Shown here piece after piece: positions 25,788 through 49,576 of a stretch of 64,000 nucleotides of DNA. Made by a program: the position numbers and the translations under genes. Location: IMG/VR virus record IMGVR_UViG_3300017783_000006, positions 1 to 64,000 of that record. The stretch is one strand, 5' to 3'. Origin of the DNA: a virus. The number at the start of each line of letters is the position of its first letter. Position 1 is the stretch's first letter. Under the pieces are notes generated by a model. The model made no database searches and was not told the origin of the DNA. It saw only the letters and a program-made list of their open reading frames with translations.

Positions 25788-26882
25788 TCATCCCTCTTGG
25801 TTTATTTGTGTTTGCTCAAATTCAGCATCAATTTTGTCATAAAGTTCAACAAAGGTTGATTTAGTTTCATCGTCGAAACGATTTAGACAAACTCTGATTG
25901 CTTTATCTTTTTTACCAAAGATAGAATATGCTTTGATAATATGAACAAGGCGACGAGTACTGATTACTTCATCAATACCACCATCATTAAAAGTCTTGCG
26001 AATAATATCAGACCAATTACATAGATGTGCAATGAAGTCAGTATGCTCACTAACCATAGGAATTTTAAGAGACTCTGCAATTTTAGTCAAGATTTTAGTC
26101 TCAGTAGCAACAGTTGGATATTGTTGCTCAAAAGTTACAGGAAACCTTTCTAGAAATGCTTCATTCAACACATTGGTGCCAATAAAACGACCATCATCAG
26201 AACCTTTACCCTTAGTGTTGGCAGTGGCAAATACATTGAAACCAGGAGAAGGAGTGATATGCTTACCAATCTTTTTCAGGAATGTACCTTTGCCTTCAAG
26301 AATACTTTGAAGACAGAGAATCTTATTAGATGCAAGGTCAATCTCATCGAGGAGGAGGATAGCACCTCGTTCAAGAGCCTCAATGACAGGACCATTGTGC
26401 CAGACAGTATTACCGTCAAGCAAACGGAAACCACCAATAAGATCATCTTCATCAGTCTCAATAGTAATATTCACACGGATGAGTTCTCTACCAAGTTGAG
26501 CACATGCTTGCTCCACACCGAACGTCTTGCCATTACCAGAGAGACCAGTAATGAACGTCGGATAGAACATATGTGACTGAATAACCTTTTTAATATCCGG
26601 GAAGTTTCCGAATGGTACAAAAGTACCATCTTTCTGAGGGATAAGGTTTTGAACAACAGTATTCATCGTAGAAACACCTGCAGAAGTGGAGTTATAATTT
26701 TCTTCTAGATCTTGAACAGTTTCTTCAAGATTCCACTTACCACGTCCAACTTTATATTGTTGAAGATATTTAGAAAGAGTTGCGTAAGATGTATTCAATT
26801 CCGATGCAACCATCTTCACAGCATCAGCACCAAATTCAGTACCATATTTTTGCTTGAGGATAGTCAGTGCGTTTTCGGTCAT
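25788..26882 (-). CDS. cobS: CobS-like / MoxR-type AAA+ ATPase
   Basis: Walker A GLSGNGKT, Walker B LLLDEID, TANTKG, LNEAFLERF, STRRL. Confidence 0.9.
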   Translation of the reverse strand: MTENALTILKQKYGTEFGADAVKMVASELNTSYATLSKYLQQYKVGRGKWNLEETVQDLEENYNSTSAGVSTMNTVVQNLIPQKDGTFVPFGNFPDIKKVIQSHMFYPTFITGLSGNGKTFGVEQACAQLGRELIRVNITIETDEDDLIGGFRLLDGNTVWHNGPVIEALERGAILLLDEIDLASNKILCLQSILEGKGTFLKKIGKHITPSPGFNVFATANTKGKGSDDGRFIGTNVLNEAFLERFPVTFEQQYPTVATETKILTKIAESLKIPMVSEHTDFIAHLCNWSDIIRKTFNDGGIDEVISTRRLVHIIKAYSIFGKKDKAIRVCLNRFDDETKSTFVELYDKIDAEFEQTQINQEG

Positions 26883-26905: not shown

Positions 26906-26962
26906 ATTATAGGGCAGAGTGGGGCAGAGTGGGGGGCAGAGTGGTCACCCCCCAAACTGGTC
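26906..26962 (-). promoter_or_regulatory. early-type promoter with dyad and a triple CACTCTGCCC repeat
   Basis: TATAAT; TTACAAGGTAATCAA leader; dyad 37 bp upstream. Confidence 0.65.
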
Positions 26963-29132
26963 AGGAAATGAGTTCAACAAAAGAACCAAGCATTTTTTTG
27001 TTAGTCTTTTTCCTCTTAAGCATTTTAGTAAATGCAGACTTAATTTGTGCCTTAGTTGCATCTTCAGGAACATTGAATTCTTCATCCTGAGCAAGAGAAG
27101 ATGCAGCAACCACATTAAACTGGTCAAATCCAGTGTCTTTAAATTGAACACAACTCTGCTTTCTGTAGATAGCAGAAACCTCATCATAAGAAGAATTTCC
27201 AGATCCATACCAGCTCCAGCAAGTACGGAAATCCCGAGAAGGAGTGATACGGAAGTTGATGAAATTTACTGTAGAAAACTTATCCTTAAGAGTTTGTAAA
27301 AGAATTTTTGCATACTTAGGGAAATTATCATACTCAAATGGTGCATAAACACGACCAGTCTTCCTATCACGAATCGTTGTACGATTCCTTCTAGTAAAAC
27401 CAACATACTTGTGGTCAGGGTCACGATATGAAGTACGTTCAACAGTAATTGCATTCTGATAACCTTCACCATCAGTGAGAAGAACAACATTTACTTTTTG
27501 AAGTTTGTTCTTCTTTTGAAACATCGGAATAACTTCATGCATTACCATTAAAGTTTCACCCAAAGGAGTTCCCGAAAGTTCCAAATGTGGAGGAGCATAT
27601 CCACGATGATACTGATAAGAGTATGCAACAGCCCAGATATTTTTAAGTTGCTCTTCAAGAACACGGTTGTTAGTAGTGCTAGTAAAGTAATTCATCAAAC
27701 GAAAGGATTCTTCTGGGGCAATAATTCCAGCAACCTTTTCATAAGTAGGGAGATGATCTTTCTGATGATTAATGTAAGAAGAAGGGTCCATAGTGAATGC
27801 GTAAACCTCAAATGGAATGTTCACTTTACGGCAGAACCAAACTAGGTTCAGAAGTTGCTTGTAAGCATCTAGAAGGAAGTTACCCATAGAACCAGACCAA
27901 TCCATAATAAAAATTAGTCCATGGTTTTTGCCGTCAGGAATGACAGAAACTTTCTTGAATAGATCTTCATTGTACTTGTAACTATGAAGTTTAGATGTAT
28001 CAATAACACCAGTACGAGCAACAGAAGAACGAGCATATTGATCAGCAGACTTTTTACACTCAAACTCCTTTACAAGATAAGAAACTTCTTTCTCTGCACT
28101 TTTCTTGTACTTAGTATACTCCTGACAAGCAAATTCAAAATACTCCTTGATGTATTGATTATCAATATTGTAATAAGCAGTTGCTGCCTGATGAATATAG
28201 TCGTTAGGAATAATTGTATTGTCAAGATTCCACTTAGGAAGTTCAACATAGGTTGTATCAGAAGCATTTCTATTCACCAATTCTTGTGCTTTTTCATCAA
28301 AAGAACGAGAAGTAGTTGACTTCAGTTCGTCATTTCCATCTCTTGAATGGGATGTTCCACCACCACCAGAAGATTCCTTAGAAGTAGTATCAGAAGACTC
28401 ATTTTCCGAGTCAGAATTATCAGATTTACCTTGACGTTGAGAAGAATTATCACTTTGCTTCTGAGTATTTTCGGAAGAATCATTTTCTTCACTATCACCT
28501 TCAGTCTCTCCATTATCATCGGAGTTGGATTCATCACTGGTTCCAGAAGGGAAAGGAATATCAGCAATTTGTTGTTCTTCTTTCTTATACTTTACATATT
28601 CTACAATTTCCCTAGAAAGATTCAAAACATCTACAAAAGATTCAGTCTGAATTGCACGGGTCAAAAACTCGTTCTCTTCGTCAGAAAAAGCAATGTTATG
28701 AAATGCACCAATTTTATAATAAAGATTGATACGATCAATGAAAGAAAGTTCATCAAGGTTTTCCTCATTAGTAGAAAAGAAATCCTCAGTATTTAATTCA
28801 TTATAACCGTTGTAAAAAGTTCTAGAAAGACCAGGATACTTATGTTTCATAAGACGTTCAACACGAACGTCTTCTAGGACGTTTACGAAATCCATGGGAA
28901 CTTCAGGATAATCGATAGTCCAATCGATATTATCAGTAAAAAGAGCATGACCAACTTCATGACCAACGAGGAGGTCATAAACAATTGGAGATGCTTTATC
29001 CCAAGTAGGGAGAACCAACACACGACGGTCAACATCAAAGGATGCAGTTGGAACTTGCTTATGCTCAATGATGAGATTTTCAGTTGCCAGACATTTGGCA
29101 AGAGAACCTTTGACTTCTAGGTTGACGGACAT
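26961..29132 (-). CDS. metallopeptidase-like plus vWA (CobT-like) protein, partner of the AAA+ ATPase
   Basis: HEVGH zincin motif, acidic Ser-rich linker, MIDAS DWSGSM...GTPL...LTDGE. Confidence 0.85.
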   Translation of the reverse strand: MSVNLEVKGSLAKCLATENLIIEHKQVPTASFDVDRRVLVLPTWDKASPIVYDLLVGHEVGHALFTDNIDWTIDYPEVPMDFVNVLEDVRVERLMKHKYPGLSRTFYNGYNELNTEDFFSTNEENLDELSFIDRINLYYKIGAFHNIAFSDEENEFLTRAIQTESFVDVLNLSREIVEYVKYKKEEQQIADIPFPSGTSDESNSDDNGETEGDSEENDSSENTQKQSDNSSQRQGKSDNSDSENESSDTTSKESSGGGGTSHSRDGNDELKSTTSRSFDEKAQELVNRNASDTTYVELPKWNLDNTIIPNDYIHQAATAYYNIDNQYIKEYFEFACQEYTKYKKSAEKEVSYLVKEFECKKSADQYARSSVARTGVIDTSKLHSYKYNEDLFKKVSVIPDGKNHGLIFIMDWSGSMGNFLLDAYKQLLNLVWFCRKVNIPFEVYAFTMDPSSYINHQKDHLPTYEKVAGIIAPEESFRLMNYFTSTTNNRVLEEQLKNIWAVAYSYQYHRGYAPPHLELSGTPLGETLMVMHEVIPMFQKKNKLQKVNVVLLTDGEGYQNAITVERTSYRDPDHKYVGFTRRNRTTIRDRKTGRVYAPFEYDNFPKYAKILLQTLKDKFSTVNFINFRITPSRDFRTCWSWYGSGNSSYDEVSAIYRKQSCVQFKDTGFDQFNVVAASSLAQDEEFNVPEDATKAQIKSAFTKMLKRKKTNKKMLGSFVELIS

Positions 29133-29166: not shown

Positions 29167-29263
29167 AAAAAAGGGGGGTCATCACTCCCCCTCAGACACT
29201 AATAAAACCGTCTACCACCAAAGACGGATCTTGGTTCTCAAAGATACAAAGAAACCTCAAGAC
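29167..29263 (-). ncRNA. candidate ~95-nt small RNA
   Basis: Promoter TTGACA-N17-TACTAT (29298-29270), two hairpins, GC hairpin followed by T7; no ORF. Confidence 0.4.
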
Positions 29264-29329: not shown

Positions 29330-29500
29330 TCACTCTGTTGGGTTTGAAGGTTCATCTAGTTCATTAAGAGCTTCTAATGCACCTTGTACTTTTAAAAATT
29401 GTTCTTTCTTTGAATTAAATTCAGTTTCAAGTTCAACAAGTCTGTCACGGAGTTCTTCTGCACTTTTTTTCAGAGTCTCCTTCATTTGTGTGGCATCCAT
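29330..29500 (-). CDS. small coiled-coil protein (56 aa, MDATQMKE...NPTE; not in ORF track)
   Basis: Perfect TATAAATA late promoter at 29531-29538. Confidence 0.7.
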   Translation of the reverse strand: MDATQMKETLKKSAEELRDRLVELETEFNSKKEQFLKVQGALEALNELDEPSNPTE

Positions 29501-29538
29501 AGTGTTATTATTATAAAATTACTACGAATTTATTTATA

Positions 29539-32500
29539 TCACCAATTTTTAGTGGTTTTTGGACCAACATAATATGCTTTAATAACAGGAAGAAGTGCAA
29601 GCCATGGAGTATGTAAAGGAATTTTAGTTTGACCTGCTCCAGCACCACCATAAGTTCCAACTGTGTGATTATGATTTGCTACTGGTCCAGTTTGTACTGT
29701 ATGATTGTGTTTACCACTATCACCAACATCATGATTATGATTTCCAGTTGGAGCAACATCAACATTATGACTGTGAGAACCACCAGTATTTACACTCAAT
29801 GGGTGAACATGTCCACCATCAGCAATAATATTATGCGAGTGATTTGCTATTGGTGTTAATGCTAATGGGTGTCTGTGTGAACCATCACCATCCACTTCAA
29901 CCTGGTGAGCATGATAACCATTTTCATTTAAAGTGATTCTTAATGGGTGTCCATGTCTACCATTCAGTTCAGCAGATGCATTATGACCATGATATCCGTT
30001 TTGTTGAACTTGTATTTGGTGAGAATGTTTACCATTTTCTTGCACAGAAAGATTATGTCTGTGGCTACCATTCGATTCGACGGATACACTTGGTCTATTG
30101 TCTGAGGTATTGTAAGTTGGATCATTGTCATCTCCAGCAGCCTCATCACCATCACCACCTTTACCTCTCTCATATCTATATTGGTGACTATGGTCACCAA
30201 CTCTTGTACCATGTCCATGATATCCTTCAGTATTAGTCTCTCCACCATGAGCATGTTTACCATTTTGAGTAGTGGATCCTTGGTGAGCATGTTTACCATT
30301 TTGTACTACTCTTACATTATGAGTGTGACCAGCATCTGGACCTAACTCTTTAGTTGCAGTGCCATGATTATGTTTACCATTCTGCTTAGTTCCTGAACCA
30401 GGGTGTCTGTGATTTCCTATTGGACCCATATTATATTCATGAGTATGCCCACCTTGTGCTCCTGTTTCTCCATTATGGGAATGACTACCTTGAGTTCCTA
30501 TATTATGTTGGTGAGCATGTCCATCATGTTGTGAAACACTAGTTGGGTGTTCGTGAGTACCATTACTAGATAATGGGTGTTCGTGACCATTGTGGGTTGA
30601 GACAGCAGTTGGGTGGTTATGAGTACCATTTTGTGATAATGGGTGGGCATGTGATGGAACATCATTAGCATTAATTTTATGCTCATTCTTACCACCAGTT
30701 TGTCCAACATTATGTCCACCACCACTAATAGGACCATTTCCACTACCCATAACATCCTTTTCTCTTAGATCAGGAAGTTTTCCGTTTGCACCAAATGTAT
30801 TTCCTAGAATTGAAAATAAATGCGAGTAATCAGCAGTTCTTCCTTGAACATTTCCTGTTCCATTTGGAACTATAGAACCATCGCATATTAAGTATCCTTC
30901 AGGAGCTTGTGCTGCAGCAAAATAATGAACAGATCCAATTGGTGGTTGCTGTTGCATCCACATCCACTTAACACCAAGAGTTTGACTGCTATTTGCAACT
31001 AATACTTGGTCATTAGAACCAACATTAAGCATTTCTGCTCTATTTTGTTGCTTACCAACAGCAATTTGTCCCTTTGCAGTCCATCCTTCATCATCAAGGA
31101 CCATACCTTGACCACCAAGAGCAATAATATGACAAGATTTGCCTGCTGATGGAGCAACAATAAATTGAATCTGTGGATTATAATTGAAATTGGGTGAAGT
31201 CCCAGAGAATGGAATGATATAATCAGCACCAGGTTCTAATAAAGTATCACCATCTAAGTATACGAGTAAGTTTGCTGGACCTTCTGGTTCAAATGCAGCA
31301 CCATCTGGAGCAAATAAGTTAAATGTTCTTTTAGATCCATTAAACTGATTTGCAATAGAATTCAATCTTACAGAGTTACCCTTAGGGTAACCATTCATTG
31401 TAATAGGTGGTTGTGGAACGTATGTAAGAGTATTAATGAAGTCTTGCTGTTGGAGAATGGTATCAGTACCATTTGCTCTCAAGAAGTGGGATTGTCCATT
31501 AGTCGAACCACCACCCTGTTTGATGAATGACGCAGCAGTAATATTCCCTTTAAATGTTGAATTATTTTGAACACATAGTCCTTGACCAATTGAAACGTTT
31601 TTAGCAATACCAACACCACCATCAAATTGAACAGAACCAGTATTAACATTACATAATGTATTGTTAGTAGTTTTAGTGAAAGTAGTAGTACCGTCAATAG
31701 TGACGTTATCCTCTAAGGTTAGTGTACCTTCAATTGTTACAGTACTATTAAATACTGCTGGTCCAATTTTTCCACAAACATAAAGGTTCTTAGCAATACC
31801 AACACCACCCGCAACTCTTAAAGAACCAGTTGTGCAAGAGGTTGCTTGTGTAGTTCCTCTAATAGATACGAATGATGATGCACTATTATTACCCATGGTA
31901 ATAGAGGAAGCAGTCTTAGCAAAATTAAGTGTGCTAATATTCGTATTAACTAAATTAAATGTTGTTGTGGTAGGTGTTGAAATTGTATTACCACCAACAT
32001 CCAAAGTTCCTAGGATATTAGTATTACCACTTGTGTCAATCTTTAATTTTGTTTCACTTGCTCTATCAAAATCTTCATTTCCAGCAGCAGTTGTTGTTGC
32101 TGGATTTGCAAGTTTCCAAGAATTTCCATCACTAGCATCGATACCCGAATACCAACGAACATTTGCATTATTTTTTGACCTATGCCAAGAGAGAACAGCA
32201 TCACCGTTTCCTTTCTGGTCTATTTTTAAGTGATTTCCCTCAAGTTCTTTACCAGAATTGCTTTGTTCAAAGTGGAAATGTCCAAGTGGTGTGATGTGGA
32301 AGTTTTGATTAGTGCCGACAGTAAATATCATGTCAGCACTTGGATCTGGTGCTTCAATTTTTAATGTACCACTAGATCCTCTCTTAGTGATTGTAGCATC
32401 ACCATTTGCCAGGTCATTGATGATGAATGTTCCATCAGGATATCCAGTATCATTAGTATGTAATGCTAGTTTTGCAGATCCAGAATTATTTCCGATACCT

Positions 32501-35500
32501 AGGTCTAATGAAACAATATCTTCAGCAACATTAATTGTATTGATTTCTAATGCAGCAGTGACAGCAGTACCAATTCCCAATCCATCTCTAGTTGACCAAG
32601 TTTGATAAACATTGGCATCAGTATTGGAAAGAACTTGAAAATTATCTTCAATTCTTACAATACCATTTCTATCATTAGGATCACTATCTAATACTAGAGC
32701 ACCAGTTCCAGAAACTTTAGTAATTGCATTATCGTTGAAGATACCAACATTAATATTACCAAATCTACCACCAATTCCATAAACATTAGATAAGAAGTCA
32801 ACCCTACCAGTGAATGTAGTGAAACCGACAACTTCTATATTAAAGAATTCCTGAGTTCCACCTTCACAAAGAATAGTTCTATATGGTGGTAAACCAGTAA
32901 TAGGATCAATCTTGGAATTGGTAAAGTATCCAGTTCCTCTTACTGTAATATCTTGGAAGATAACATCACCAAGTTCCTGTCCTTGGTCTAGTGTTAAAAC
33001 ACCAGTTACCTGTAAGTTTTCAACAATTGTTTGGTCACTTACTCTTAATTTTATTAAGTTCTGAGGAACAGGAACATTGCCGATTCCCAGATGGTCTATC
33101 ATTAGAGTCTTTTCATCGGCAACTGCACTAATGAATCCCCACTGTCTCCATTCACCTTCGGTATAAACGTGACCAATGTAACCATCAATTGGGTTAGAGA
33201 TAAATTTGATGTCACCAGGAGTTTTTGCACTAGAAGTTGGAGTAGAAATACCAACTGTTAGTAGTTTTGCTTGCTGTGCATTTCCTTTTAAGAATAAATT
33301 CTTAGTCTCAATACCTAATTCTGAAGTATTGGTTACTTTGTTTGTAAAGTTTACTGGACCATAGAATTGTGATGTCTGGTTGGTATTCTCACCACCCTCA
33401 ACAGTAATTCTTCTTCTTACTAGAAGTTCGTCAAAAATTCCACTTGAAAGGTTTGTATTTTCACCCTCAGCATCATCACCAGTGTATGTGATAACAGGTG
33501 CATCAACTACACTTTCCTCACCAGTTGCAGAACTTAGTTTCTTACTTCCAGAGAAAAATTCACCAAGGTCATTCATACCAGTGTAAACAACTGAACCACC
33601 TCGTTGTTCTTTAGACTGAGACTTAAGAACTTCCTGCTCAGATAGAATTCTATTCTGCTTTTGAGGCATACCAGTTGAATAGTTACCTGGACCAAATCCA
33701 AGATATTCAAATGTATGTCCAGATGCTCTCATGAATGATGGTCTTCTCAATTCTGAAGGAATTGGGAAGATTTTTCTTGCTAAAGTATTTACTAATGCCG
33801 TAGTTTTTATAGTTCCAAACTTACCACGTAATACACTAAATGGATTTGATGAACCTGAGATTCTTACAATTTCATTATTAATCTGATAATACTCACCTCT
33901 AATTACTGAATCTGGATCAGAGAAATTAATTGTTGTAGATGTATTGTCAAATGCCGAGTTTACATAATTTATTTTTTTATCATAAAGTGTAGTTGCTCTA
34001 GAAGCAATATTTTCCTCACCTCTACCAAGAGTTTTTGCATTAGATGAGAAAACTCTTTTTATAACTTTTCCTGTTGAACCAAGTGCTGTTGAACCAACAC
34101 CTAAAATCTCAACAGTAAATGTAGTTAGACCAACAACACCCTTAACTAATACACTTGCATCAAATGCTGTAATACCCGTGCTTACGATATTGATATTGTT
34201 ACCTGCAAATAATCCATGACTATTTGATGTAGTAAATGTTGCAATACCAGTTTCGGTATCCGACATTTCAAAAGCAGAAATAGATACAACATTTCCAGAT
34301 GGAATTACATATCCAAGTTCACCACTACTATTAGGATCATTTGTACTAATACCTAAAGGTGCATTTAGTACAATTGATTTTGCTGATGGAATACTATTAA
34401 TTTCAAATGCATCATTTAAGTCATCAACATAATATCCATTGAGTTCGATAGCATCAGTAGTATTGTCATTAATTCCAGTAATTGATATAGTGGCATTTAC
34501 TGTTCCACCAGGAATACTTAAATCATCACCAACTGCATATGCAGAACCAGGGTCAAGAAGTTCAACATTAGAAATACCACCAGTAGCATCTGTGGTTACT
34601 TTTGCCGTAGCACCTTCACCATTTGATGAAATTGCGGTTAATTGTACTGAAAATAAAGTAGAAGATGGTGTATAACCAGAACCAGCAGTATTTGTGAAGG
34701 TTTTAATTGAATTTAAATTATGTTCAACATCAGTGAATACAGTAATTGTTGAGTTATTAGTTCCAGATAAGTCTAGTTGAGTTACTGCATAACCAACTTT
34801 AGTTCCTTTAATGAAATAATCTAGACCTTCTCTAGTGATAGAGTGACGTTTATCATTAGTAATGACATCACCAATAACTTTTAAGTCGGAGTAACTTACT
34901 GATGATTTTGGATTAGTATTTAAGTTATCTCTATCTTGTTGAGGGTAAAGGTTTCTTACGTCCTGTGAGAATTGTTTTGTATATAATCCATATCCCACAT
35001 TGGAATCAGGTGATACCGATGAGTTTAAACAAACTAGATGATAAATTCCGTCTTGTCCATCATCACCAGGTACATGCTTTTTAATTTGATTGACACGATA
35101 GATGAAATATGATTCTTTATATTCATCTCTTGAAACTACTGGTAGTGCTTCTCTCTGTTGTCGTGTATTCCTTAAATTGATATCATTGGTAAATGTTCCG
35201 GGTTCTACTTTTACACCATCAGTAATATATTGGAATTGCTTACTATTAAGGATATTTGTAATAGTATAAATTCCATTATAAGTTGAAACAATTCCAACAG
35301 ATAGTGGATTATTTGTACTTCTAATTTTTTGTACCTTTACTTCATCACCTTCGATAAATCCGTGAGGTAACTCGGTCGTTAAAGTAATAACTTGTGAATC
35401 AGCAATTACTGGTGCTGCAACTGCATTAACAATAACTCTTTCGTTTCTTAAATCTTTTGTATTCGTTAGTACATCATTCGTATATGAAACACTAGTTACA

Positions 35501-37977
35501 CCAACAGTTTTTGATTCTTGAACTACATATCCTGCTTCAGGTGGTTTAGCATTATCGTATTCCTTGGGGATTACATAACGTAATCTATATACTTTATCAT
35601 CAATGGAACGATTATCTGACTTTCTTCTGAAGAAAGCTGCAGATGTTTCTTCACCTAAGGTTGCAAGACCAGTAGTAACGATTGCTGTGTAAATTTTGTT
35701 TACACTACCATCATTGTCACTAATTAAATACCAGTTATTTTCTACTGGGTCCCATTGTATTGGGTGCCCAAGTTGACCAGGAACTTTATCTGATACTCTA
35801 CTTACAATTTTTAGAATACCACCATTATTATTGATTCCTAAAACAGGGGTATCTGATATCGCATCATTTAGGGATTGAGCAATCTTTAACTGATTTGAGC
35901 TAAGTCCACCACCAGTAATAGCATAATAAATTCCCTCATTATCCAAACCATCGGGAGTTTGTCCAGTGTCACTAAAGACTCTAATTCTCTCACCATTAAG
36001 GAACTGGTGAGTTTGTGTTAGATTGATAGTATTATTACTAATAAGGTTTTGACCATTATTTCTACTTACTTCATATTCTTTTCTTGCGGATACCCTGTCT
36101 CCAAATGGTACAGGCATTAAAATAGGTGCAGTATATGTTGTCTGTGCCGTACCTACTGTAACTGTTAAACTTAAAGTATCACCATCTCTAGCACCAATTC
36201 TAAATCCATCAATTTGATAAGGTGGGATAGTATCTTCGTTAGTTTGGTCGAAAATATAAAGTCTTGATGGATCTGATGAGTTGATTGTCTTCTCTACATC
36301 AAGAGACAACCAGTTTACTTCGTTCTCATCACCGAGTAGACCTCTAGGTGGAACAACGTGTGTAATATAACCAACATCATCTCTGTCAAATGATTCTGGT
36401 TTGAAACTAACTGCTTCTAATGATGTATTACCGAAGTTGGAGTTGGAGTTAGTAATTGATTGGTCTCCACCAGTCTCTGCCACAAAGTGTTTTGCAAAAC
36501 CGATAGCAAAGATAGAAACACACTGAATAAATGCATTATTTGAACACTTGATGTGGAAGTTTTCCCAATCTGGTTTAAATATTGCCCTTGAATTAGTGTG
36601 TAGGGGTTTCGATAAACTATTTGCTGGAAGAGTATTCTCTTCATAGAAGGTGCCATTATCATATAGAATGAATGCATTATTATCTTTCTGAAGGCTAACG
36701 CCAGTGAACTGAGCGGTCACCATTGACTTGAATCCAGTGGCTTTGCTACCATCAGCGTGCATACCATTCATACCAAAAACTGATCTCAGTGAACAGTTAA
36801 AGATATATGGTGATGCAGAACTTACAGTATCAGAACCAACTGTAACTGTTGCAGTATCGAAGAATGATACGTCAGGTAAGAAGTCGAGTGGTGTTTGGTT
36901 AGCTGTATATTTGAATGTATTGATACCAACAACATCACTTACTGTGTATGAACCATTATATGATTCACCATCTATTGTTACTCCACTAATTAAGAATGGA
37001 CTATCAACATATAGATTGTGGGGTGCAGTATCTCCCGTAAGTTTGTTTGAAGTTGTTACTGTAATCTCATTTAAATCACCAGTTCCATTACCGTTACCTG
37101 CTTTAATGCTAGTAATTCCTAATGGGTTTGCATCAAGTGAACCAACAATTCTAAATTCATCGACAGATGGTTCAAAGTCCTCTGTTACTGGGAAGTCACC
37201 AAGACCTCTACCAGTAATATCACCATATGCCTTTGCGACCTTGTAGTAATACATATCAAGGTCAGATAGGTATGTCTGGTAATCTGCCAGAGCAACCATA
37301 TTTACACCGTCACCATACTCAAAGCAGGTTACTTTATGGTGTGAGTAGTTAGGAACTACTTGTGTTCCAGAATAGTCTTTATATACACTCTTTGTTGGGT
37401 CTGCGTCAAATATACTAAAAGCAGTAAAATAACAAGTACCTGTTACGTTTAAAATACTTGTGGTCTCAATATTATCGTCTTCTGGATCGGGAACATATAA
37501 TGGACGAATTTTGGTTTTTCTTAGGTCCAAACCAATAATTGAAGTACCTCTAGGCAGTATAGCACCACCACTTACAGAGTTGTACTTGTATAAGTCGTTT
37601 GATGGACTTAGAATATCAAAATTGGTAAGTTCATTAAATTCTGTTAGTGTTGTTTGTTCCCAAATGTCTGGAGCAGTTCTTCTTTTATATACTGCAACTC
37701 CACCAATCTCTTCGATAGAATAACCAGGTCTGTTATCAATATAGTGAGTTCCAGGATAAACTAGAATAGTCGTTCTATCTATTCTATCATTATTCTCACC
37801 TGTTTGATATGAGAATCTAGCTGCTTCTATTAATGCTCTCTGAATTGTTTTGAATGGTCTCGTCAGTGAATTACCTTGATTCTCAAAACTATCGGTAGCA
37901 TCAAAATCCGATGGATTCACATAAAGAATATTACCTTCAGCATTCTTAAGAAAATTCTCTAGTCTTGATAATGGCAT
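29539..37977 (-). CDS. giant tail fibre (2812 aa) with tail-collar domain and His-rich needle
   Basis: MPLSRLENFL N-terminus, beta-rich repeats, collar PIGSVHYF..PEGYLICDG..LF..LG..LPDLR, 26 HxH motifs; late promoter at 38008-38014. Confidence 0.88.
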   Translation of the reverse strand: MPLSRLENFLKNAEGNILYVNPSDFDATDSFENQGNSLTRPFKTIQRALIEAARFSYQTGENNDRIDRTTILVYPGTHYIDNRPGYSIEEIGGVAVYKRRTAPDIWEQTTLTEFNELTNFDILSPSNDLYKYNSVSGGAILPRGTSIIGLDLRKTKIRPLYVPDPEDDNIETTSILNVTGTCYFTAFSIFDADPTKSVYKDYSGTQVVPNYSHHKVTCFEYGDGVNMVALADYQTYLSDLDMYYYKVAKAYGDITGRGLGDFPVTEDFEPSVDEFRIVGSLDANPLGITSIKAGNGNGTGDLNEITVTTSNKLTGDTAPHNLYVDSPFLISGVTIDGESYNGSYTVSDVVGINTFKYTANQTPLDFLPDVSFFDTATVTVGSDTVSSASPYIFNCSLRSVFGMNGMHADGSKATGFKSMVTAQFTGVSLQKDNNAFILYDNGTFYEENTLPANSLSKPLHTNSRAIFKPDWENFHIKCSNNAFIQCVSIFAIGFAKHFVAETGGDQSITNSNSNFGNTSLEAVSFKPESFDRDDVGYITHVVPPRGLLGDENEVNWLSLDVEKTINSSDPSRLYIFDQTNEDTIPPYQIDGFRIGARDGDTLSLTVTVGTAQTTYTAPILMPVPFGDRVSARKEYEVSRNNGQNLISNNTINLTQTHQFLNGERIRVFSDTGQTPDGLDNEGIYYAITGGGLSSNQLKIAQSLNDAISDTPVLGINNNGGILKIVSRVSDKVPGQLGHPIQWDPVENNWYLISDNDGSVNKIYTAIVTTGLATLGEETSAAFFRRKSDNRSIDDKVYRLRYVIPKEYDNAKPPEAGYVVQESKTVGVTSVSYTNDVLTNTKDLRNERVIVNAVAAPVIADSQVITLTTELPHGFIEGDEVKVQKIRSTNNPLSVGIVSTYNGIYTITNILNSKQFQYITDGVKVEPGTFTNDINLRNTRQQREALPVVSRDEYKESYFIYRVNQIKKHVPGDDGQDGIYHLVCLNSSVSPDSNVGYGLYTKQFSQDVRNLYPQQDRDNLNTNPKSSVSYSDLKVIGDVITNDKRHSITREGLDYFIKGTKVGYAVTQLDLSGTNNSTITVFTDVEHNLNSIKTFTNTAGSGYTPSSTLFSVQLTAISSNGEGATAKVTTDATGGISNVELLDPGSAYAVGDDLSIPGGTVNATISITGINDNTTDAIELNGYYVDDLNDAFEINSIPSAKSIVLNAPLGISTNDPNSSGELGYVIPSGNVVSISAFEMSDTETGIATFTTSNSHGLFAGNNINIVSTGITAFDASVLVKGVVGLTTFTVEILGVGSTALGSTGKVIKRVFSSNAKTLGRGEENIASRATTLYDKKINYVNSAFDNTSTTINFSDPDSVIRGEYYQINNEIVRISGSSNPFSVLRGKFGTIKTTALVNTLARKIFPIPSELRRPSFMRASGHTFEYLGFGPGNYSTGMPQKQNRILSEQEVLKSQSKEQRGGSVVYTGMNDLGEFFSGSKKLSSATGEESVVDAPVITYTGDDAEGENTNLSSGIFDELLVRRRITVEGGENTNQTSQFYGPVNFTNKVTNTSELGIETKNLFLKGNAQQAKLLTVGISTPTSSAKTPGDIKFISNPIDGYIGHVYTEGEWRQWGFISAVADEKTLMIDHLGIGNVPVPQNLIKLRVSDQTIVENLQVTGVLTLDQGQELGDVIFQDITVRGTGYFTNSKIDPITGLPPYRTILCEGGTQEFFNIEVVGFTTFTGRVDFLSNVYGIGGRFGNINVGIFNDNAITKVSGTGALVLDSDPNDRNGIVRIEDNFQVLSNTDANVYQTWSTRDGLGIGTAVTAALEINTINVAEDIVSLDLGIGNNSGSAKLALHTNDTGYPDGTFIINDLANGDATITKRGSSGTLKIEAPDPSADMIFTVGTNQNFHITPLGHFHFEQSNSGKELEGNHLKIDQKGNGDAVLSWHRSKNNANVRWYSGIDASDGNSWKLANPATTTAAGNEDFDRASETKLKIDTSGNTNILGTLDVGGNTISTPTTTTFNLVNTNISTLNFAKTASSITMGNNSASSFVSIRGTTQATSCTTGSLRVAGGVGIAKNLYVCGKIGPAVFNSTVTIEGTLTLEDNVTIDGTTTFTKTTNNTLCNVNTGSVQFDGGVGIAKNVSIGQGLCVQNNSTFKGNITAASFIKQGGGSTNGQSHFLRANGTDTILQQQDFINTLTYVPQPPITMNGYPKGNSVRLNSIANQFNGSKRTFNLFAPDGAAFEPEGPANLLVYLDGDTLLEPGADYIIPFSGTSPNFNYNPQIQFIVAPSAGKSCHIIALGGQGMVLDDEGWTAKGQIAVGKQQNRAEMLNVGSNDQVLVANSSQTLGVKWMWMQQQPPIGSVHYFAAAQAPEGYLICDGSIVPNGTGNVQGRTADYSHLFSILGNTFGANGKLPDLREKDVMGSGNGPISGGGHNVGQTGGKNEHKINANDVPSHAHPLSQNGTHNHPTAVSTHNGHEHPLSSNGTHEHPTSVSQHDGHAHQHNIGTQGSHSHNGETGAQGGHTHEYNMGPIGNHRHPGSGTKQNGKHNHGTATKELGPDAGHTHNVRVVQNGKHAHQGSTTQNGKHAHGGETNTEGYHGHGTRVGDHSHQYRYERGKGGDGDEAAGDDNDPTYNTSDNRPSVSVESNGSHRHNLSVQENGKHSHQIQVQQNGYHGHNASAELNGRHGHPLRITLNENGYHAHQVEVDGDGSHRHPLALTPIANHSHNIIADGGHVHPLSVNTGGSHSHNVDVAPTGNHNHDVGDSGKHNHTVQTGPVANHNHTVGTYGGAGAGQTKIPLHTPWLALLPVIKAYYVGPKTTKNW

Positions 37978-38031: not shown

Positions 38032-38592
38032 TTATTTAAATTCTGGACCAGTTGCCCAAACAACCAAAACATCACGAATTCCAGATGACACTGAATGTGC
38101 CTTATGGGGTGTTTTTGAGTTGAATATTACTGTATCACCATATTCTTTTCCTAAAAATATATGTTGCCCATATTGATTTATTAGTTCCAATTCACCATCC
38201 CCATAATCTGAGGAATGACTAAATTGAACACTTAAACTCAATTTTCTTACAGAACCTTCAATATGACTTGAACCGTAATCACAATGCCATTTATAATTTC
38301 CATTCGGATAATATTTAAGCAATTGGATATCCAAATGACCATCTAAATCATAGTTAAAATATATATCATTATATTTTTGTAGATATTTCTGAATTATTCC
38401 ACTTACTTTTGAGTAATTTTCAGCATCTAAATGATTCGGATAAGCAATGCTAGTTAAACGATATTGTTTATCATCCTCATAAGATATCTTTTGCTCAGTA
38501 TAAGGTAAATGTAAGCAAGAATTTTTTATATTTTTTATATCTTCTTCTTCAAATTTTAAGAAATAGTTTGACTTTACTACTTTATGTATCAT
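38032..38592 (-). CDS. 2OG-Fe(II) oxygenase, PKHD-type
   Basis: WHCD..RKLSLS..Y.DGEL..H.A..V.SG.R.VLV.W..GP; start revised because the track start lies inside tRNA-Thr. Confidence 0.9.
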   Translation of the reverse strand: MIHKVVKSNYFLKFEEEDIKNIKNSCLHLPYTEQKISYEDDKQYRLTSIAYPNHLDAENYSKVSGIIQKYLQKYNDIYFNYDLDGHLDIQLLKYYPNGNYKWHCDYGSSHIEGSVRKLSLSVQFSHSSDYGDGELELINQYGQHIFLGKEYGDTVIFNSKTPHKAHSVSSGIRDVLVVWATGPEFK

Positions 38593-38607
38593 AATAACAA
38601 AATAAAA

Positions 38608-38679
38608 AGCCTTCGACAAGATTTGAACTTGCGACCTGAGCTTTACAAAAGCCCTGCTCTACCACTGAGCTACAAAGGC
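38608..38679 (-). tRNA. tRNA-Thr (TGT)
   Basis: GCCTTTG...CGAAGGCT; anticodon arm GGGCT-TTTGTAA-AGCTC. Confidence 0.93.
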
Positions 38680-39364: not shown

Positions 39365-39421
39365 ATTATAGCATAGACTTTTCGGCATGTCAAGAGTCTT
39401 GTGCCAGACTTTGAACTGGTT
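39365..39421 (-). promoter_or_regulatory. consensus sigma70 promoter with upstream dyad
   Basis: TTGACA-N17-TATAAT with TGn; GTGCCAG-N8-CTGGTT. Confidence 0.75.
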
Positions 39422-40016
39422 ACACGTAACTATTGCACTCCCCCTCTATGAAACTCGTCAAACAATATTTTACTCCACTAATTGGTTTTTGTCCTCTATG
39501 TGTAAATATAGGACCTGTAGGAAATATTAATACACTTCCCTCTTTTGGAGATACTTTGCGCCCAAATTTAAATTCTGTACAACCACCTTCATCCACATCA
39601 TTTAAATATATTATTATTGCCAAAATTCTACGTGTATTTCTGGTTAATATTGTGTCATCAGAATGCCAACCGAACCATGAATCATTTTGAACATATTTTT
39701 TGAACATATATCCAGTATCAGATAAATTATCGGGAAGTATTTGATAATTACCAAATTTTTCATACATTAAATTAATATATTTTGTGCATGATAGTTTTAG
39801 TTTTGAGTAAACAAGATCTTCTATGTCACCTAAATTTTTACAATGCTTAACTGGAACCTCTAAAGTCTTTTTCGCATTATTATATTCTGCACCATTTAGA
39901 CCAGAACACATCCCTGGTCTTAAAAACTCTGAATTTTCACACCTGTCTATTATTCTTTTACAATCTTGTTTAGTATACGTGTTGTCAAAAACACATATGA
40001 AGTCATTTAAGTCCAT
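39420..40016 (-). CDS. 2OG-Fe(II) oxygenase, prolyl-4-hydroxylase-like
   Basis: WHSD...IYLNDVDEGG.TEF...FP...HRG..P.SG.KY. Confidence 0.9.
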   Translation of the reverse strand: MDLNDFICVFDNTYTKQDCKRIIDRCENSEFLRPGMCSGLNGAEYNNAKKTLEVPVKHCKNLGDIEDLVYSKLKLSCTKYINLMYEKFGNYQILPDNLSDTGYMFKKYVQNDSWFGWHSDDTILTRNTRRILAIIIYLNDVDEGGCTEFKFGRKVSPKEGSVLIFPTGPIFTHRGQKPISGVKYCLTSFIEGECNSYV

Positions 40017-40603: not shown

Positions 40604-42922
40604 TTAACTGAAGTTGAGTGATGATGTACCGTAAACTCTAATTGCTCCTGTTGAATCTTTGAGAAGAGCAAAACTTAGAATATCTTCATTATTTGTTGGG
40701 TTTGGTGCAATACCACCTGGCCAACGTACTCCACCTGAAACACTAGTTCCATTGATACTGCACTGCTCACCATAAGTAATTAATGAGTCTGAATCAATGA
40801 TAAGAGTGATTGTAGTTGATTTAGATGTTTCTGTATTGATGCCAGTAAATGCCCACTCCGAAACTGTTGTTGTTAGGAATCCAACTGCAATAGTTGACGT
40901 AGAAACATCAATAGTTAGTTTACCAGAACCATTAGGAACAAATTCATCAGCAAAATCACCAATGATGTTCTCTGTTACTGCACCCTCAAAGTGTGCATAT
41001 CCAGCAAGTCTAGCATCACCCAATAAGTCCAATGATGACCTAGGTGTTGTTGAACCGATACCAACTTTATAGTTGCTATCTACAATAACATCACCTTCAA
41101 ATTCACTTCTACCTTGTACTAATAGTTGTGCCGCATAATCACTTGTTACGGTTGTACCAATGCCAACCTTACCATCAGTCTTCCAAATATTTTCATTGCC
41201 ATCCTTCTCCCAGTTTGATGCAATATAAATTTCACCATTTTCGTATAATGTTCCAGTGAAATTAATATTACCATTAACATCCACATTAAACTGAGGAACT
41301 GTATTACCAACTCCCAAGTAATTTGAGGAGGGGTTATAAACTAAGTTGCCATCATCAACTTGTGGAGTTCCTGTATCATCTACAGTCTCCGTAAACATCA
41401 AATTGAATAGTTGATCTGTGGAGTTATCTAAAATACTAACAGATGCAGCAGCACCAACAGTAACATTTTGTGCTGGAGACCACCTTGCTGGATTTGGACC
41501 TTGTGAGGTTAAGACTTCACCAGAAACACCTCTTCCATTAGTTGTATAAATTAAACCGTTGAATTGAACATCACCATTAACATCTAATTCATATGCAGCA
41601 TCAGTTTTAATTCCTATTCTATTTGTAACTGAAATATCAGTTGCTGCTATGCTTGCAACACTTAATGTATTTGCAATTGAAATATTTCCTGTTCCACCAC
41701 CTTCTAGATTGACATTAATTGCAGTGAGATTTGCAATAGTTGCTACTCCAATATAACCATAAGTTACAGTTGAAACCCCAACAGTTGCAATTCCTACATT
41801 AGAGAATTCAACATCTTCACTTGTAATATCTGCATTTGATATAGTTGCTAATCCAATATTTGCATCTACTGCATGGACATACTGAATAGTTGCTACACCA
41901 ATATTTGCATTGGTTGTAGTTGTGTATCCAATAGTTGCAAAGTCTATATCTGCTTCAAAAATACTGGTAATGCCAGAAAAACTTTGATTGGTTGATTTCA
42001 ACTCAGTGATAGTTGCTAAACCTACACTTGAGTATGTACCAACCTGACGATAGACGGTAGATATACCAGTTACATTCTCATTTTCCGTTTCAAATACTGT
42101 TGACTCTAATGTTGATGATGTAGTTACTCCAGAATTAATGTAATCAGCATTAAATCTTGTACTAACTAGGGAATCAATAAGTGATGTGTTAACACCAGTA
42201 GCATCAGGGGCACTTATTGTATTTGCGTTAATATATCCTGCTCTTAATTTTCCTATCTTACTGAAAGTTGCTTCATCATCACCTGGACGAAGAGTTGTTG
42301 CGCCGGTAATTGCTTCTGGATTTCCAATAAAAGCATTTGCTCTTACTTTCCCTTCTGTTCCTACTCCAGAAACGTGTAATCTTTCTGTTGGTACGGTTGT
42401 GCCAAATCCAACGTTACTTACATCTGCATAATAAAAGAGTTCGGGGATTTCTTCTAAGAATCCATCTGCCCCTTTCATTTGGAACTGCCCAAGGTCACCT
42501 TCGGCAGCACTGTCTACAATAATTGTTGCAATACCTGTTTGTTCAGATGATGACGTACCAACATATGCTACTGATACACCAGCACCAACAAAGTCCAAAG
42601 TAAAGAAACTACTTGCTGAACCAACAAGAATTCCTTCATCTCTAATAGTAACAGCACCAGGAACAGCACCTAAACCAAGACCCGAAAGTGCATTAGTTGG
42701 AACCCAGTATCTACTAGGTCCAAATGATGTTCCACCATACGATGCAAGGATATATGCATCACCTTGAGGAAATGGTTTTGCCCCAATTGATGATGGTCCT
42801 ATTATTGGATCACCAAGGTCTGGTTCTGCCTCTGGTAAACTTAGATACTGATACCGACTAGTCGATAATGCATCTTGAGCAAGTTTTATAACTCTTTTAC
42901 TTTGAAAATCAGGTACGCTCAT
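40604..42922 (-). CDS. tail-fibre-like structural protein
   Basis: GIAT/GVAT repeats and VGIGTT.P...L.V.G repeats. Confidence 0.75.
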   Translation of the reverse strand: MSVPDFQSKRVIKLAQDALSTSRYQYLSLPEAEPDLGDPIIGPSSIGAKPFPQGDAYILASYGGTSFGPSRYWVPTNALSGLGLGAVPGAVTIRDEGILVGSASSFFTLDFVGAGVSVAYVGTSSSEQTGIATIIVDSAAEGDLGQFQMKGADGFLEEIPELFYYADVSNVGFGTTVPTERLHVSGVGTEGKVRANAFIGNPEAITGATTLRPGDDEATFSKIGKLRAGYINANTISAPDATGVNTSLIDSLVSTRFNADYINSGVTTSSTLESTVFETENENVTGISTVYRQVGTYSSVGLATITELKSTNQSFSGITSIFEADIDFATIGYTTTTNANIGVATIQYVHAVDANIGLATISNADITSEDVEFSNVGIATVGVSTVTYGYIGVATIANLTAINVNLEGGGTGNISIANTLSVASIAATDISVTNRIGIKTDAAYELDVNGDVQFNGLIYTTNGRGVSGEVLTSQGPNPARWSPAQNVTVGAAASVSILDNSTDQLFNLMFTETVDDTGTPQVDDGNLVYNPSSNYLGVGNTVPQFNVDVNGNINFTGTLYENGEIYIASNWEKDGNENIWKTDGKVGIGTTVTSDYAAQLLVQGRSEFEGDVIVDSNYKVGIGSTTPRSSLDLLGDARLAGYAHFEGAVTENIIGDFADEFVPNGSGKLTIDVSTSTIAVGFLTTTVSEWAFTGINTETSKSTTITLIIDSDSLITYGEQCSINGTSVSGGVRWPGGIAPNPTNNEDILSFALLKDSTGAIRVYGTSSLNFS

Positions 42923-43303: not shown

Positions 43304-46300
43304 TTAGTCTGTTAGTGCTAGGATGAATGGTGTCATCGTTGTGAATAGTGCTTTAGTGAAGTCTCTACCAGAAATAGAACCAGTTGACTGATTAATAATA
43401 ATTCCATCACCGATTCTAAAATTACCTGCTTGGTCTGTGCTTGTGAATACAACAGAACCACCATTATTTTGAACAACTTCATTTTCTTGTATAGTTACAC
43501 CACCTTGTGCAGGTCGTGCTCCATTAATGTCGTTGCCAGCACCAATAAATTCAAAAGCATGAGATGAAGTAAGTTGTAAACTCAATCTCGACAAGAATGC
43601 TGTACTACCAGCACTTACGGTATTATTTAGGTTCTGTGCTAAGGATACAGTAGATAAACCAGAAACTGGTTTTGTTGCTTCAAGAATTGTATAATAAATT
43701 GGTTCCATAGCAGTTGCGGAAGCAGTTGCAGTCGTTCCTGCACCTGTAGGTCCAGCAATTGTTATATTTGGTGCTCCAACATATTGTGTTCCATTGGTAA
43801 CAACATTAATTTCAATAACAGAACCATTCTCTATAGTTGCAACTGCCTGTGCGGTAATGCCATTTGGACCTGTTGGTGCATCAATCGTTATTCTTGGTGG
43901 AACATCATAACCAGAACCACCATCAGTTACTCCAATAGTCTCAACAATTTCATATAAAGTATCGAAGTAAAGTGCTTGACCATCATATGGTCTTTGTGTT
44001 CCTACACCAGAGATTTCAATAACATTCTGTCCTCTTGATGCTTCTGCATTTACTTCACCGGTATATCTGTATATTGACTTAGATAATGGACCACCAACAC
44101 CTTCAGAAACAAGACCAAAAGTACCAAATGATGAGTTGGAGTTGGTTAAATCGCATTGACCACCAGACTCAGTATAAATTGCAATGTCGGTACAGATAGT
44201 GAAGATAGAAACTAACTGAGCATATGCACCATTAGTAACAGAAACTCCGATACCACCTTGATTGTATTGAGTATAAGAGTCAACTGACATTGAACCAGTG
44301 ACACCAATATCATCTTTATCACCAAGTTCTGCATCAAAACCGTTAATTCTCATTCCAATACTCTTTGGAATGAAGTTTGTGCAGTTTCTAATATATGGAC
44401 CTTGTGTGATTGGACCAACCCCAGGTGAGAATGAAGGATCATTTGGATTATTACTTCCAGCACCATTATTGCCAGGATATGTGGTATTGATACCAACACC
44501 TAGAATTGAGGGACCATTATCAATAATTAGATTGATTCCACCAATGCAAGAATAAATTGCCGAAACCACATTAGTACATCCACTTGGATGATTGTTCATC
44601 CCCGTGGATGAATCTGCTTGAATTGATAAATCTCTAACTTGAGTATATTCTGACTGATAATTAATTCGTTTTTGTACTTCTCCACCAGATGAATATGTAT
44701 GTGGAATTGTTGAAAGTCCAGTATTTACTTCAAATTGATTTGTATTTCCTACACCTAAGACTTCAAATGTATATCCATAATTTCCACTTGGATAGTAATA
44801 AGTTCCAACTCCAGTTGAGCAAGTAAATCCTAAACCACTTAGGGTTACAATATCACCAGTTTGCAATCCATGACCAACAGAAGTAATCGTTGTTATTCCA
44901 GTTCCACCATCATAATATGCTTGGATAACTGGGGTTGCAGCACCATCGGTTTTTCCTGCCCAATGTGAATTATTAACAATGGAACGACATACACTTGCTG
45001 CATATGTTAATGCATCCATAGTTTCTGTCTTAACTCCAACAATATGCTGAAGTGCATCACCACTATAATAACTCAATCCAGCACCAACACACTTAGAGTT
45101 TCCTCCTCTAGTGATATCATGCATTACTGCCTTCAGAACATCCTTTACATCGTCTCTGCAATTTTGAGAATCATCTGGATTTCCCTGTGCATCAAGAACT
45201 TGGAATGGTGGGTCTTGATAATCTGTGCTAGTTAAATATCCTACAGTTTCATGTGCAATAAAATCAATGTTATTGCGAATCAATCTTGCCCCATCAAAAA
45301 ATGCATTACCAGCAACTCCTAGTAATGGTTGGAATGCAATAACAGCAGCACCATCTTGTGCTTCTTGTCCTTGGAAACTTAAATCTGTAATATGACAAGC
45401 ATTATTTACATAGAATAAATCGTTGGCAGGATTTTGTGGACTAATTATACAGTTACGTAATTCTGCACCTTCTACAGCAACATTACGTCCTAAAATAATT
45501 GGATTATCTTCTACATAAATTCCAGGGAAAACTTTAATCGTATCACCTTCTTCTGCAATCAATGATGCTGATTTTACTGTTCTCTTAGTATCACTTTCAC
45601 TTAAACCAGAGTTTGTATCATCACCACCCTGTGAAACATAAATTGTTTTTCCAACTGGTTTAAATGCGGAAATAGTTACTTGTCCCTTTCCATTAGATGG
45701 ACTTAGAGTAATACCAATACCAGCAACAATTGTTGTAACAATACCACTTAAGAATTCACCACCACCAACAAATTGTGCTGCTGTTACAACACCAGTCACA
45801 TTCAGGTCATTAAAAGTTGCACCCTCAAGAGCAGAAAAGTCAATATTCGAGAATGTAGCAACACCTGCAACTCTTAAGTCTTGAACGGTAGAACCAGCAG
45901 AAACGTTAATACCATTAGTAACGTCTACTCTACCGACTAATGTGCCAATACCATTTGTCTCTAAGTTTTCAAAGAAATCAATTCCTAATGCTTCTTGGAA
46001 TGCATCTTTGGTGAAATCATCAATACCACCAATATTTCTTAATTCTGCAACACCAGTTGTACCGACACCAATAACTCTCTCTGAACCAACACCAATTGCT
46101 GCGAATGTACCAAATCCAGTTACATTTAGAAATTCGGTTTCAATACTTGGAGCAATAATTGAACCAGCACTGTCTTGGAAAATAACAGTATTAAAAATAG
46201 CAGTTCCAGCAACTGCTACATTAGTGAAATCTGCTTGACCAGAAGAATATATGTCTGAAAATGTAGAAAATCCACTTACATTAAGTGCATTTAAATTTGA

Positions 46301-48892: not shown

Positions 48893-49576
48893 TTATAACT
48901 GCTTCCATTGAGATGGGTGAGTGCATCCTTGGTGATGCTTATAATATTCTGGTTTAAGTGTGACTCTTAAATCACCAGCAATTGCACATCTTTCATTTAC
49001 TCTTGGAATTGTCTTTTTTGTATGATGATAAGTTCCTGTTGGCATCAATAACACTGTTCCCTCATGTGGGGTTATGGTATAATGGTTGCAATTAAATTTA
49101 TTAAAACCAGTCATAACATTATGCTTATCCGCAACATCAAACCAACCTTCGCATACTTGGTTATGATTATCATCTGGCATTCTACTTACAACGAATTTAT
49201 CGGAACTGTCGTCAGTATTTAAGTAATATACAAAACTTATATTTGCTTCGTTATGTTTATGAAATGCTAATGAGGGGGTAGTATCATCACGATGATATAC
49301 TACCCAAGATTTTACAATATGATAATCCATCAAATTATAATTAATTCCAAGAACTTCTAGATATTCATTTAATGCTTCTTTTAGTGAAACAAAGAAATCA
49401 GAATATTCTTCTTTTAGATGTACAAAGATTCTAGAAGATGCTTCTGGAGATTCGTATTCATATCCATTAAACCAATATTGTTTCAAACTTTCAAAATGTT
49501 TTTCCTTGAATTCAGAATGACATTTTATTTCAGTCTGATGAACTGCTAAGGGAAAAACCTCATGCGTTTTGCTCAT
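48893..49576 (-). CDS. putative 2OG-Fe(II) oxygenase (TIGR02466-like)
   Basis: SW..HKH..NISFVYY..P.EG..P...H..R..IAGD. Confidence 0.8.
   Translation of the reverse strand: MSKTHEVFPLAVHQTEIKCHSEFKEKHFESLKQYWFNGYEYESPEASSRIFVHLKEEYSDFFVSLKEALNEYLEVLGINYNLMDYHIVKSWVVYHRDDTTPSLAFHKHNEANISFVYYLNTDDSSDKFVVSRMPDDNHNQVCEGWFDVADKHNVMTGFNKFNCNHYTITPHEGTVLLMPTGTYHHTKKTIPRVNERCAIAGDLRVTLKPEYYKHHQGCTHPSQWKQL

Follow-up and report, generated by a model that had tools for sequence, protein, structure and literature searches.

A giant tail fibre of a probable cyanophage ends in a long, regularly periodic array of histidine pairs

Results

A giant fibre gene with two runs of HxH motifs

The window analysed here, a stretch of 64,000 nucleotides corresponding to positions 1 to 64,000 of IMG/VR record IMGVR_UViG_3300017783_000006, carries a giant tail-fibre gene on its minus strand. 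The gene, its parts and its immediate neighbour are listed below.

29539..37977, minus: giant tail-fibre gene (2812 aa), an open reading frame whose first ~1650 aa are 38-51% identical to cyanomyovirus 'tail fiber' genes
30757..30936, minus: N-terminal part of a tail-collar domain, aa 2348-2407 (Pfam PF07484)
30184..30651, minus: outgoing run of the putative needle, aa 2443-2598, with 14 HxH rungs, or 15 if the overlapping motif in HAHQH is included (regular expression, shuffling)
30064..30183, minus: tip insert of 40 aa (aa 2599-2638), rich in Gly and acidic residues, where a hairpin presumably has its head or turn
29665..30063, minus: returning run of the putative needle, aa 2639-2771, with 12 HxH rungs (regular expression, shuffling)
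29542..29664, minus: C-terminal tail, aa 2772-2812, which is conserved (70-100% identity, nine homologues) and includes the hydrophobic stretch LLPVIKAYY
29743..30758, minus: stretch that blastn did not align to the related contig L007, the putative needle cassette, swapped or hypervariable
29330..29500, minus: conserved 56-aa helical ORF directly 3' of the fibre gene, possibly fibre-associated

The sole Pfam domain detected in the 2812-aa protein was the collar PF07484 (E = 5.1e-9, 36.4 bits against a cut-off of 24), which lies immediately N-terminal of the histidine motifs. When overlaps were allowed, a regular expression found 28 HxH motifs across the protein, 27 of them within aa 2443-2771, where they are split around the tip insert as 15 before (with HAHQH counted twice) and 12 after; counted without overlaps, the needle holds 14 + 12 = 26. 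Successive motifs are 9-15 aa apart, 12 aa being the commonest spacing. The first-pass annotation of this DNA had described a collar followed by 14 HxH motifs, an acidic Gly-rich loop and 12 further motifs at intervals of about 9-15 aa, all within positions 29665-30945. The motif search and Pfam agree on each of these parts, the measured spacing is the same, and the boundaries fit a last rung that ends at 29665 and a collar that starts at 30936. The 40-residue tip insert contains nine Asp or Glu, four Lys or Arg and six Gly residues.

The array exceeds chance, since shuffled sequences never reached the real count. When aa 2436-2775 were shuffled with all 55 histidines kept (n = 5000), HxH motifs numbered 8.6 on average and 18 at most, compared to 27 in the real needle, while in shuffles of the whole protein (n = 2000) the mean was 2.7 and the maximum 9, compared to 28. 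The composition of the needle is biased toward H, G, N, S and T. Its rungs also share a signature, with Gly at position -2 in 20 of the 26 and V, L or T at positions +4/+6. Among the open frames of the 78.8-kb record, the giant fibre alone is rich in HxH, the runners-up having two motifs. Because no other open frame has more than two, the virus appears to encode more than one fibre type and a single histidine needle; two further large fibre or structural genes lie in the same block, at 43304-47077 (1257 aa) and 40604-42922 (772 aa), both on the minus strand.

The virus and the genes around the fibre

The IMG/VR record that holds the fibre gene is estimated to be 40% complete. Residues 1-1659 of the fibre match 'tail fiber' genes of 459 cyanophage records, all at <60% identity, with the best matches to this shaft (S-SCSM2R, Sf-FS3 and S-SSM7) at about 50%. 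The genes around the fibre encode baseplate, tail tube and other fibre proteins according to PHROGs, and one tail protein of the record has the same cyanophage relatives at 38-43% identity. Based on the shaft matches, these neighbours and the relatives of the tail protein, the fibre appears to belong to a T4-like cyanomyovirus, itself uncultured and at a fair distance from cultured cyanomyoviruses, whose host is putatively cyanobacterial.

Three 2OG-Fe(II) oxygenase-like ORFs (PHROGs) are found amid the fibre and baseplate genes, at 38032-38619, 39420-40016 and 48893-49576, all on the minus strand, with one of them directly upstream of the giant fibre. On the other side, a CobS-like gene (phrog_249; 25788-26882, minus) adjoins the gene for a 723-aa protein (26961-29132, minus) that contains an HExxH motif as well as a long stretch that is acidic and rich in Ser and Asp; this protein matched a PHROGs 'peptidase' family (phrog_459, E = 1.6e-250) and no Pfam family. 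The 56-aa ORF directly downstream of the fibre is acidic and helical and precedes terminator-like hairpins at 29208-29227 and 29174-29191. Its best match was phrog_580, to which no function is assigned (E = 1.9e-6), and its other matches were sub-threshold coiled-coil Pfam families and two uninformative phage hits. Its resemblance to small fibre chaperones is one of size and position only.

Histidines are retained where other needle residues vary

A homologue search of 5.8 billion proteins returned 16 matches, nine of them full-length (2782-2815 aa), and conservation was scored in a 10-sequence alignment that included the window protein as reference. The first 500 aa of the fibre (35881-37977 in the window, minus) are 92-99% identical to the window protein across the nine homologues, and this N-terminal part is common to hundreds of cyanophage fibres. 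In the five most distant homologues, identity fell to 30-43% in the needle and was back at 70-76% over the final 37 aa. Of the 55 histidines in aa 2436-2775, 46 were invariant in the 10 homologues compared to 14 of the 285 other residues, and 11 of those 14 were glycines.

The tip insert has conserved features of its own. A GGDGD-type Gly/Asp stretch, which we take to resemble calcium-binding Gly-Asp loops, is kept in 7 of 10 homologues, and G2610, G2608, T2624, P2629 and V2631 are invariant or nearly so.

Rung number also differed within the family, in that three homologues (P0008-P0010) have 13 + 11 rungs, with one rung missing from each run beside the tip. We extended this comparison to 42 proteins with at least 6 HxH motifs each. 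The outgoing and returning counts differed by at most 2 in 37 of the 42 (tips 32-53 aa, tails 24-42 aa), a figure that hinges on locating the tip by the largest gap between motifs and that includes 12 rows from this one fibre family, which are hence not independent. The largest-gap rule failed in five of the 42 (P0013, P0051, P0143, P0022 and P0018), where the tip was misplaced or the protein was a fragment, and the Pearson correlation between outgoing and returning counts over all 42 rows was only 0.28. Rung numbers that co-vary on both runs fit a needle that goes out and comes back.

The needle behaves as a cassette between related phages

Two IMG/VR contigs, L007 and L008, shared the fibre in a locus search that used an alignment as query; the same search with the single fibre protein confirmed no loci. 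Compared to the window, L007 is 97.9% identical in the downstream genes up to 29742 and 87.1% identical upstream of 30759, while L008 is 96.1% identical downstream and 80.8% upstream, with a needle gap as in L007. Between these flanks, the ~1 kb of needle DNA (aa ~2407-2745) gave no blastn alignment to either contig. The needle thus seems to have been replaced, or to have diverged far faster than its flanks, while keeping 26 or 24 rungs. Because the needle DNA is unalignable between otherwise near-identical contigs, it behaves as a swapped or hypervariable cassette with a probable role in host range. The 56-aa downstream ORF is almost unchanged in L007 and L008 despite the differing needle next door.

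Tandem Repeats Finder reported no repeats in 29400-31100, so the rung array is an old one, diverged at the DNA level, rather than the result of a recent expansion. In a megablast search of 50,697 phage records, the tip DNA had no match.

The order of parts is that of the T4 gp37 tip

The solved structure of the T4 gp37 receptor-binding tip, comprising collar, needle and head, is presumably PDB entry 2XGF. In the last 226 aa of T4 gene 37, we found the collar PF07484, three HxH motifs, a 34-aa tip, four HxH motifs and a short hydrophobic end. This order of collar, rungs, tip insert, rungs and hydrophobic end is identical to that in the window protein, which supports the proposal of the first-pass annotation that the needle shares the out-and-back design of T4. 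The tip is 40 aa here compared to 34 aa in T4, and the tail after the last rung is 41 aa compared to 26 aa. The Gly at position -2 that marks most rungs here occurs in six of the seven in T4, and small or beta-branched residues follow the second His of the rung in both proteins. Several features of a T4-type tip are thus present at the level of sequence, namely the collar PF07484, rungs in two runs with the shared signature, a small tip and a conserved C-terminal tail.

The two proteins differ mainly in scale and regularity. The outgoing and returning runs are 156 and 133 aa here and 49 and 35 aa in T4, that is, 3.2 and 3.8 times as long in residues, in agreement with the original estimate of about 3-4 times. 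Whereas the seven T4 rungs are irregularly spaced at 9-32 aa, the 26 here are mostly 12 aa apart. The full fibre is 2812 aa compared to 1026 aa for T4 gp37, and the Pfam Phage_fiber repeat PF03335 is found in the T4 tip but was undetected here.

Outside the collar, the sequence relation to the T4 tip appears weak. Pairwise BLASTP aligned the two tips rung to rung with an E value of 2e-4 for a single comparison, a similarity that may largely reflect composition, and hhalign of alignment A2 with the T4 gp37 tip gave a probability of 79.7% over 23 collar columns only. A phmmer search of the PDB with the last 553 aa returned no matches at E <= 1. The sole match in a profile search of the PDB (alignment A1) was 8kec_A, the long fibre of Anabaena phage A-1(L), at E = 1e-3; this match spans the collar to the first rungs, and the T4 tip was not retrieved. 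Histidine rungs are not mentioned in the available portion of the paper on the A-1(L) fibre.

Structure prediction added nothing to these comparisons. An AlphaFold2 monomer model of the last 473 aa, built with a 10-row alignment, had a mean pLDDT of 31.7 and a pTM of 0.19 and was unusable, showing almost no structure after the collar. A trimer prediction of three copies of aa 2505-2730 with four Fe ions and the 10-row alignment, run without controls, gave ipSAE values of 0.30 and 0.30 against a mark of 0.42 and counts neither way.

A rung count of 26 is high but not unique

The first-pass annotation had proposed that the fibre is possibly an extreme case, and we compared its number of motifs to the counts in other phages. 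Among cultured phages, T4 and Sinorhizobium phage phiM6 have 7 HxH motifs, POR1 has 12, S-T4 has 17 and Sf-CH8 has 19; POR1 is a Pseudomonas phage from sewage (activated sludge) and phiM6 is a soil phage. Overlapping counts in the search of 5.8 billion proteins were 10, 11, 12, 14, 14, 24-28 and 39. An exhaustive search of 1.84 billion representatives gave 4930 matches at E <= 0.001, mostly through the collar; among the best 150 of these 4930, 15 proteins had at least 10 HxH motifs in one cluster and three had at least 17 (18, 21 and 26). The long arrays are strictly periodic, with a 12-aa period in P0013 and P0021 and a 10-aa period in Sf-CH8 and S-T4. The count of 26 is indeed high, being the top value among the cyanophage-type fibres compared, yet it is below the 39 of P0013, and counts of 17 and 19 in cultured phages and of 21, 26 and 39 in metagenomic proteins show that a long array is not peculiar to this fibre. 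An array of 26 rungs is therefore at the high end of a continuous range, uncommonly long though with parallels elsewhere.

Close cultured counterparts of the needle are in Sf-CH8 (PV340853, 1959 aa) and S-T4 (MH412654, 1949 aa), which have cyanomyovirus fibres with a collar and a long regular needle of 10 + 9 and 9 + 8 rungs, tips of 33-34 aa and a C-terminal end of a similar kind. They differ from the window protein in having 19 and 17 rungs, a 10-aa rather than a 12-aa period and 25-29% identity (tblastn). Both are annotated merely as 'tail fiber protein', and our literature search found no paper on either needle. These 17-19-rung needles, unremarked so far, appear to foreshadow the 26-rung array.

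The metagenomic proteins P0013 (39 HxH), P0051 (26) and P0021 (21) likewise have the collar PF07484 followed by arrays with an exact 12-aa period, and a tip and C-terminal end of the same kind as here, while the rest of each protein is unrelated. The longest array is that of P0013 (1867 aa), where aa 1308-1843 hold 39 HxH motifs. The 12-aa interval is exact over 22 successive rungs of this array, and some rungs of the outgoing run are degenerate, retaining a single His.

Shorter needles have been described in two other phages. The gp12 of Alteromonas phage R22Y, with 6 HxH motifs, and the gp267 of Citrobacter phage CkP1, with 8 His-X-His motifs, were both read as T4-like iron-binding needles on the basis of sequence and AlphaFold models, as far as the accessible parts of the two papers go (PMC11705849, PMC10175313). 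Their rung counts are a quarter to a third of 26. In the literature that we covered, which did not include Bonnain 2016, a paper that possibly lists cyanophage motifs, no long HxH arrays are described for cyanophage tail fibres. We also considered Gram-positive phages as carriers of such arrays and dropped them, as the one Microbacterium phage match inspected, gp37 of YellowPanda, has a collar but one HxH motif.

The giant fibre of S-SSM7 (GU071098, 2328 aa) is orthologous to that of the window, with 50.5% identity over the first 1633 aa, but ends in a Peptidase_S74 chaperone module; its tip is without HxH, and the whole protein has one such motif. Since the tips differ in this way on related shafts, the shaft appears to be conserved and the ends modular, and the needle would be one of several interchangeable tips.

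Discussion

What we have described appears to be a known kind of fibre tip in a long form with a regular period, common to a small lineage of uncultured cyanophages. The array of motifs, the collar, the rung signature of T4, conservation confined largely to the histidines, matched rung numbers in the two runs and the cassette-like behaviour of the needle DNA are all observed. Together they make it likely, in our judgement, that the fibre ends in a trimeric tip of the T4 gp37 type with a much longer needle, in which each rung holds one metal ion and the surfaces that vary, at the tip and on the outside, serve recognition. What we infer is the formation of a trimer, its hairpin fold, the single metal per rung and the identity of that metal.

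In such a tip, the last ~470 residues would form a T4 gp37-type receptor-binding module in which an insertion interrupts the collar domain. An outgoing run of 156 residues would lead to the 40-residue tip and a returning run of 133 residues back from it, and the C-terminal tail presumably rejoins the collar, like the end of T4 gp37. At each rung, the HxH pairs of all three chains would point to the axis, where their six histidines would bind a single divalent metal ion, so that, if every HxH forms a His6 site as reported for T4, a trimer would have ~26 metal sites. These ~26 stacked rungs may hold six thin strands together as a rigid rod about 3-4 times as long as that of T4. The role of the metal would be structural. 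Host recognition would fall to the parts that vary, namely the tip and the outside of the rod, and the rod would be swapped or diversified as a cassette. The suggestion made at first pass that the acidic loop is the receptor-binding tip is reasonable by analogy with T4, but almost all non-histidine residues of the needle vary too.

The same residues might instead form no needle at all but a tail that is rich in histidine, flexible and disordered, with a role in metal binding or pH sensing and no fixed trimer fold. Such a tail would account for the AlphaFold2 monomer being nearly structureless after the collar and for the bias toward H, G, N, S and T; however, prediction of an obligate trimer as a monomer is expected to fail, and a disordered tail is hard to square with the strict 12-aa period, with invariant His pairs beside freely varying neighbours, with the paired loss of rungs on both runs or with a conserved C-terminal tail that would complete the collar. 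We regard this explanation as highly improbable. The identity of the metal is a separate matter, since the same needle could have its His6 sites filled by nickel, cobalt, zinc or manganese rather than iron. Sequence alone cannot distinguish the ion, and six-imidazole octahedral sites accept several divalent ions. Moreover, ~26 iron ions per fibre would presumably be a real cost in iron-poor water, and the scarcity of iron in the habitat of such phages could leave the sites to other ions. On the other side, the rung signature is common to T4 and the window protein, and T4 gp37, the sole module of this kind to have been measured, is reported with seven iron ions on paired histidines in the available text of the source (PMC11705849). 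A metal other than iron is thus a possibility to be taken seriously, if the less probable one.

The first-pass annotation had also linked the needle to the Ferrojan-horse hypothesis, in which the irons would be recognised by a siderophore or iron receptor of the host, making the needle both an iron bait and an oceanic pool of iron. The phage is probably a marine cyanomyovirus, its motif is that with which T4 binds iron according to the part of the source available (PMC11705849), and the hypothesis is repeated for T4-like cyanophages in excerpts of two further sources (PMC11724200, bioRxiv 10.1101/674382). The pool effect would come from any iron-filled needle, regardless of the receptor. None of our results, however, bears on the receptor or ties the needle to siderophore receptors, and similar needles are found in non-marine phages, with 7 rungs in T4 (gut), 12 in POR1 (activated sludge) and 7 in phiM6 (soil). 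In the T4 structure reported by Bartual in 2010, the irons reportedly lie enclosed along the axis, each with six histidines as its full set of ligands, and hence would not be exposed to a receptor. Near-identical phages differ in the non-histidine residues and the tip, as recognition of a receptor through the protein surface predicts. Components of FhuA-type hydroxamate uptake are largely absent from picocyanobacteria according to the available sections of a genome survey (PMC3475125), the host of this phage being itself inferred. Recognition of the irons by a host receptor therefore seems very unlikely, and this part of the first-pass proposal finds no footing here.

If the rungs of the T4 gp37-type needle that we favour are metal sites, the lineage would show how far such a needle can extend, as a periodic rod with ~26 ions. 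Whether these ions are iron is more speculative. It is conceivable, though we hold it only tentatively, that the rod carries ~26 iron ions per fibre, that a virion with an assumed six fibres locks up some 150 or more iron atoms, that the metal of the fibres is both a real cost and a colloidal iron pool, and that the number of rungs is a selected trait. If this were true, the ~150 or more irons per virion would be several times the T4 figure, and fibre metal would form a measurable colloidal iron pool in the iron-poor ocean. The number of rungs, at 24-26 in this lineage, 17-19 in cultured relatives and up to 39 elsewhere, would then trade reach or stiffness against metal cost.

The metal content of such fibres can be measured without the uncultured phage, because Sf-CH8 and S-T4 carry 19- and 17-rung versions of the needle. 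The array would thereby offer a high-signal test case for iron in marine phage fibres, the element of the Ferrojan-horse idea that lends itself to measurement. With its histidines frozen, nearly all other residues variable and the needle apparently exchanged as a cassette, this tip may serve as a natural scaffold for changes of host range in marine cyanophages.
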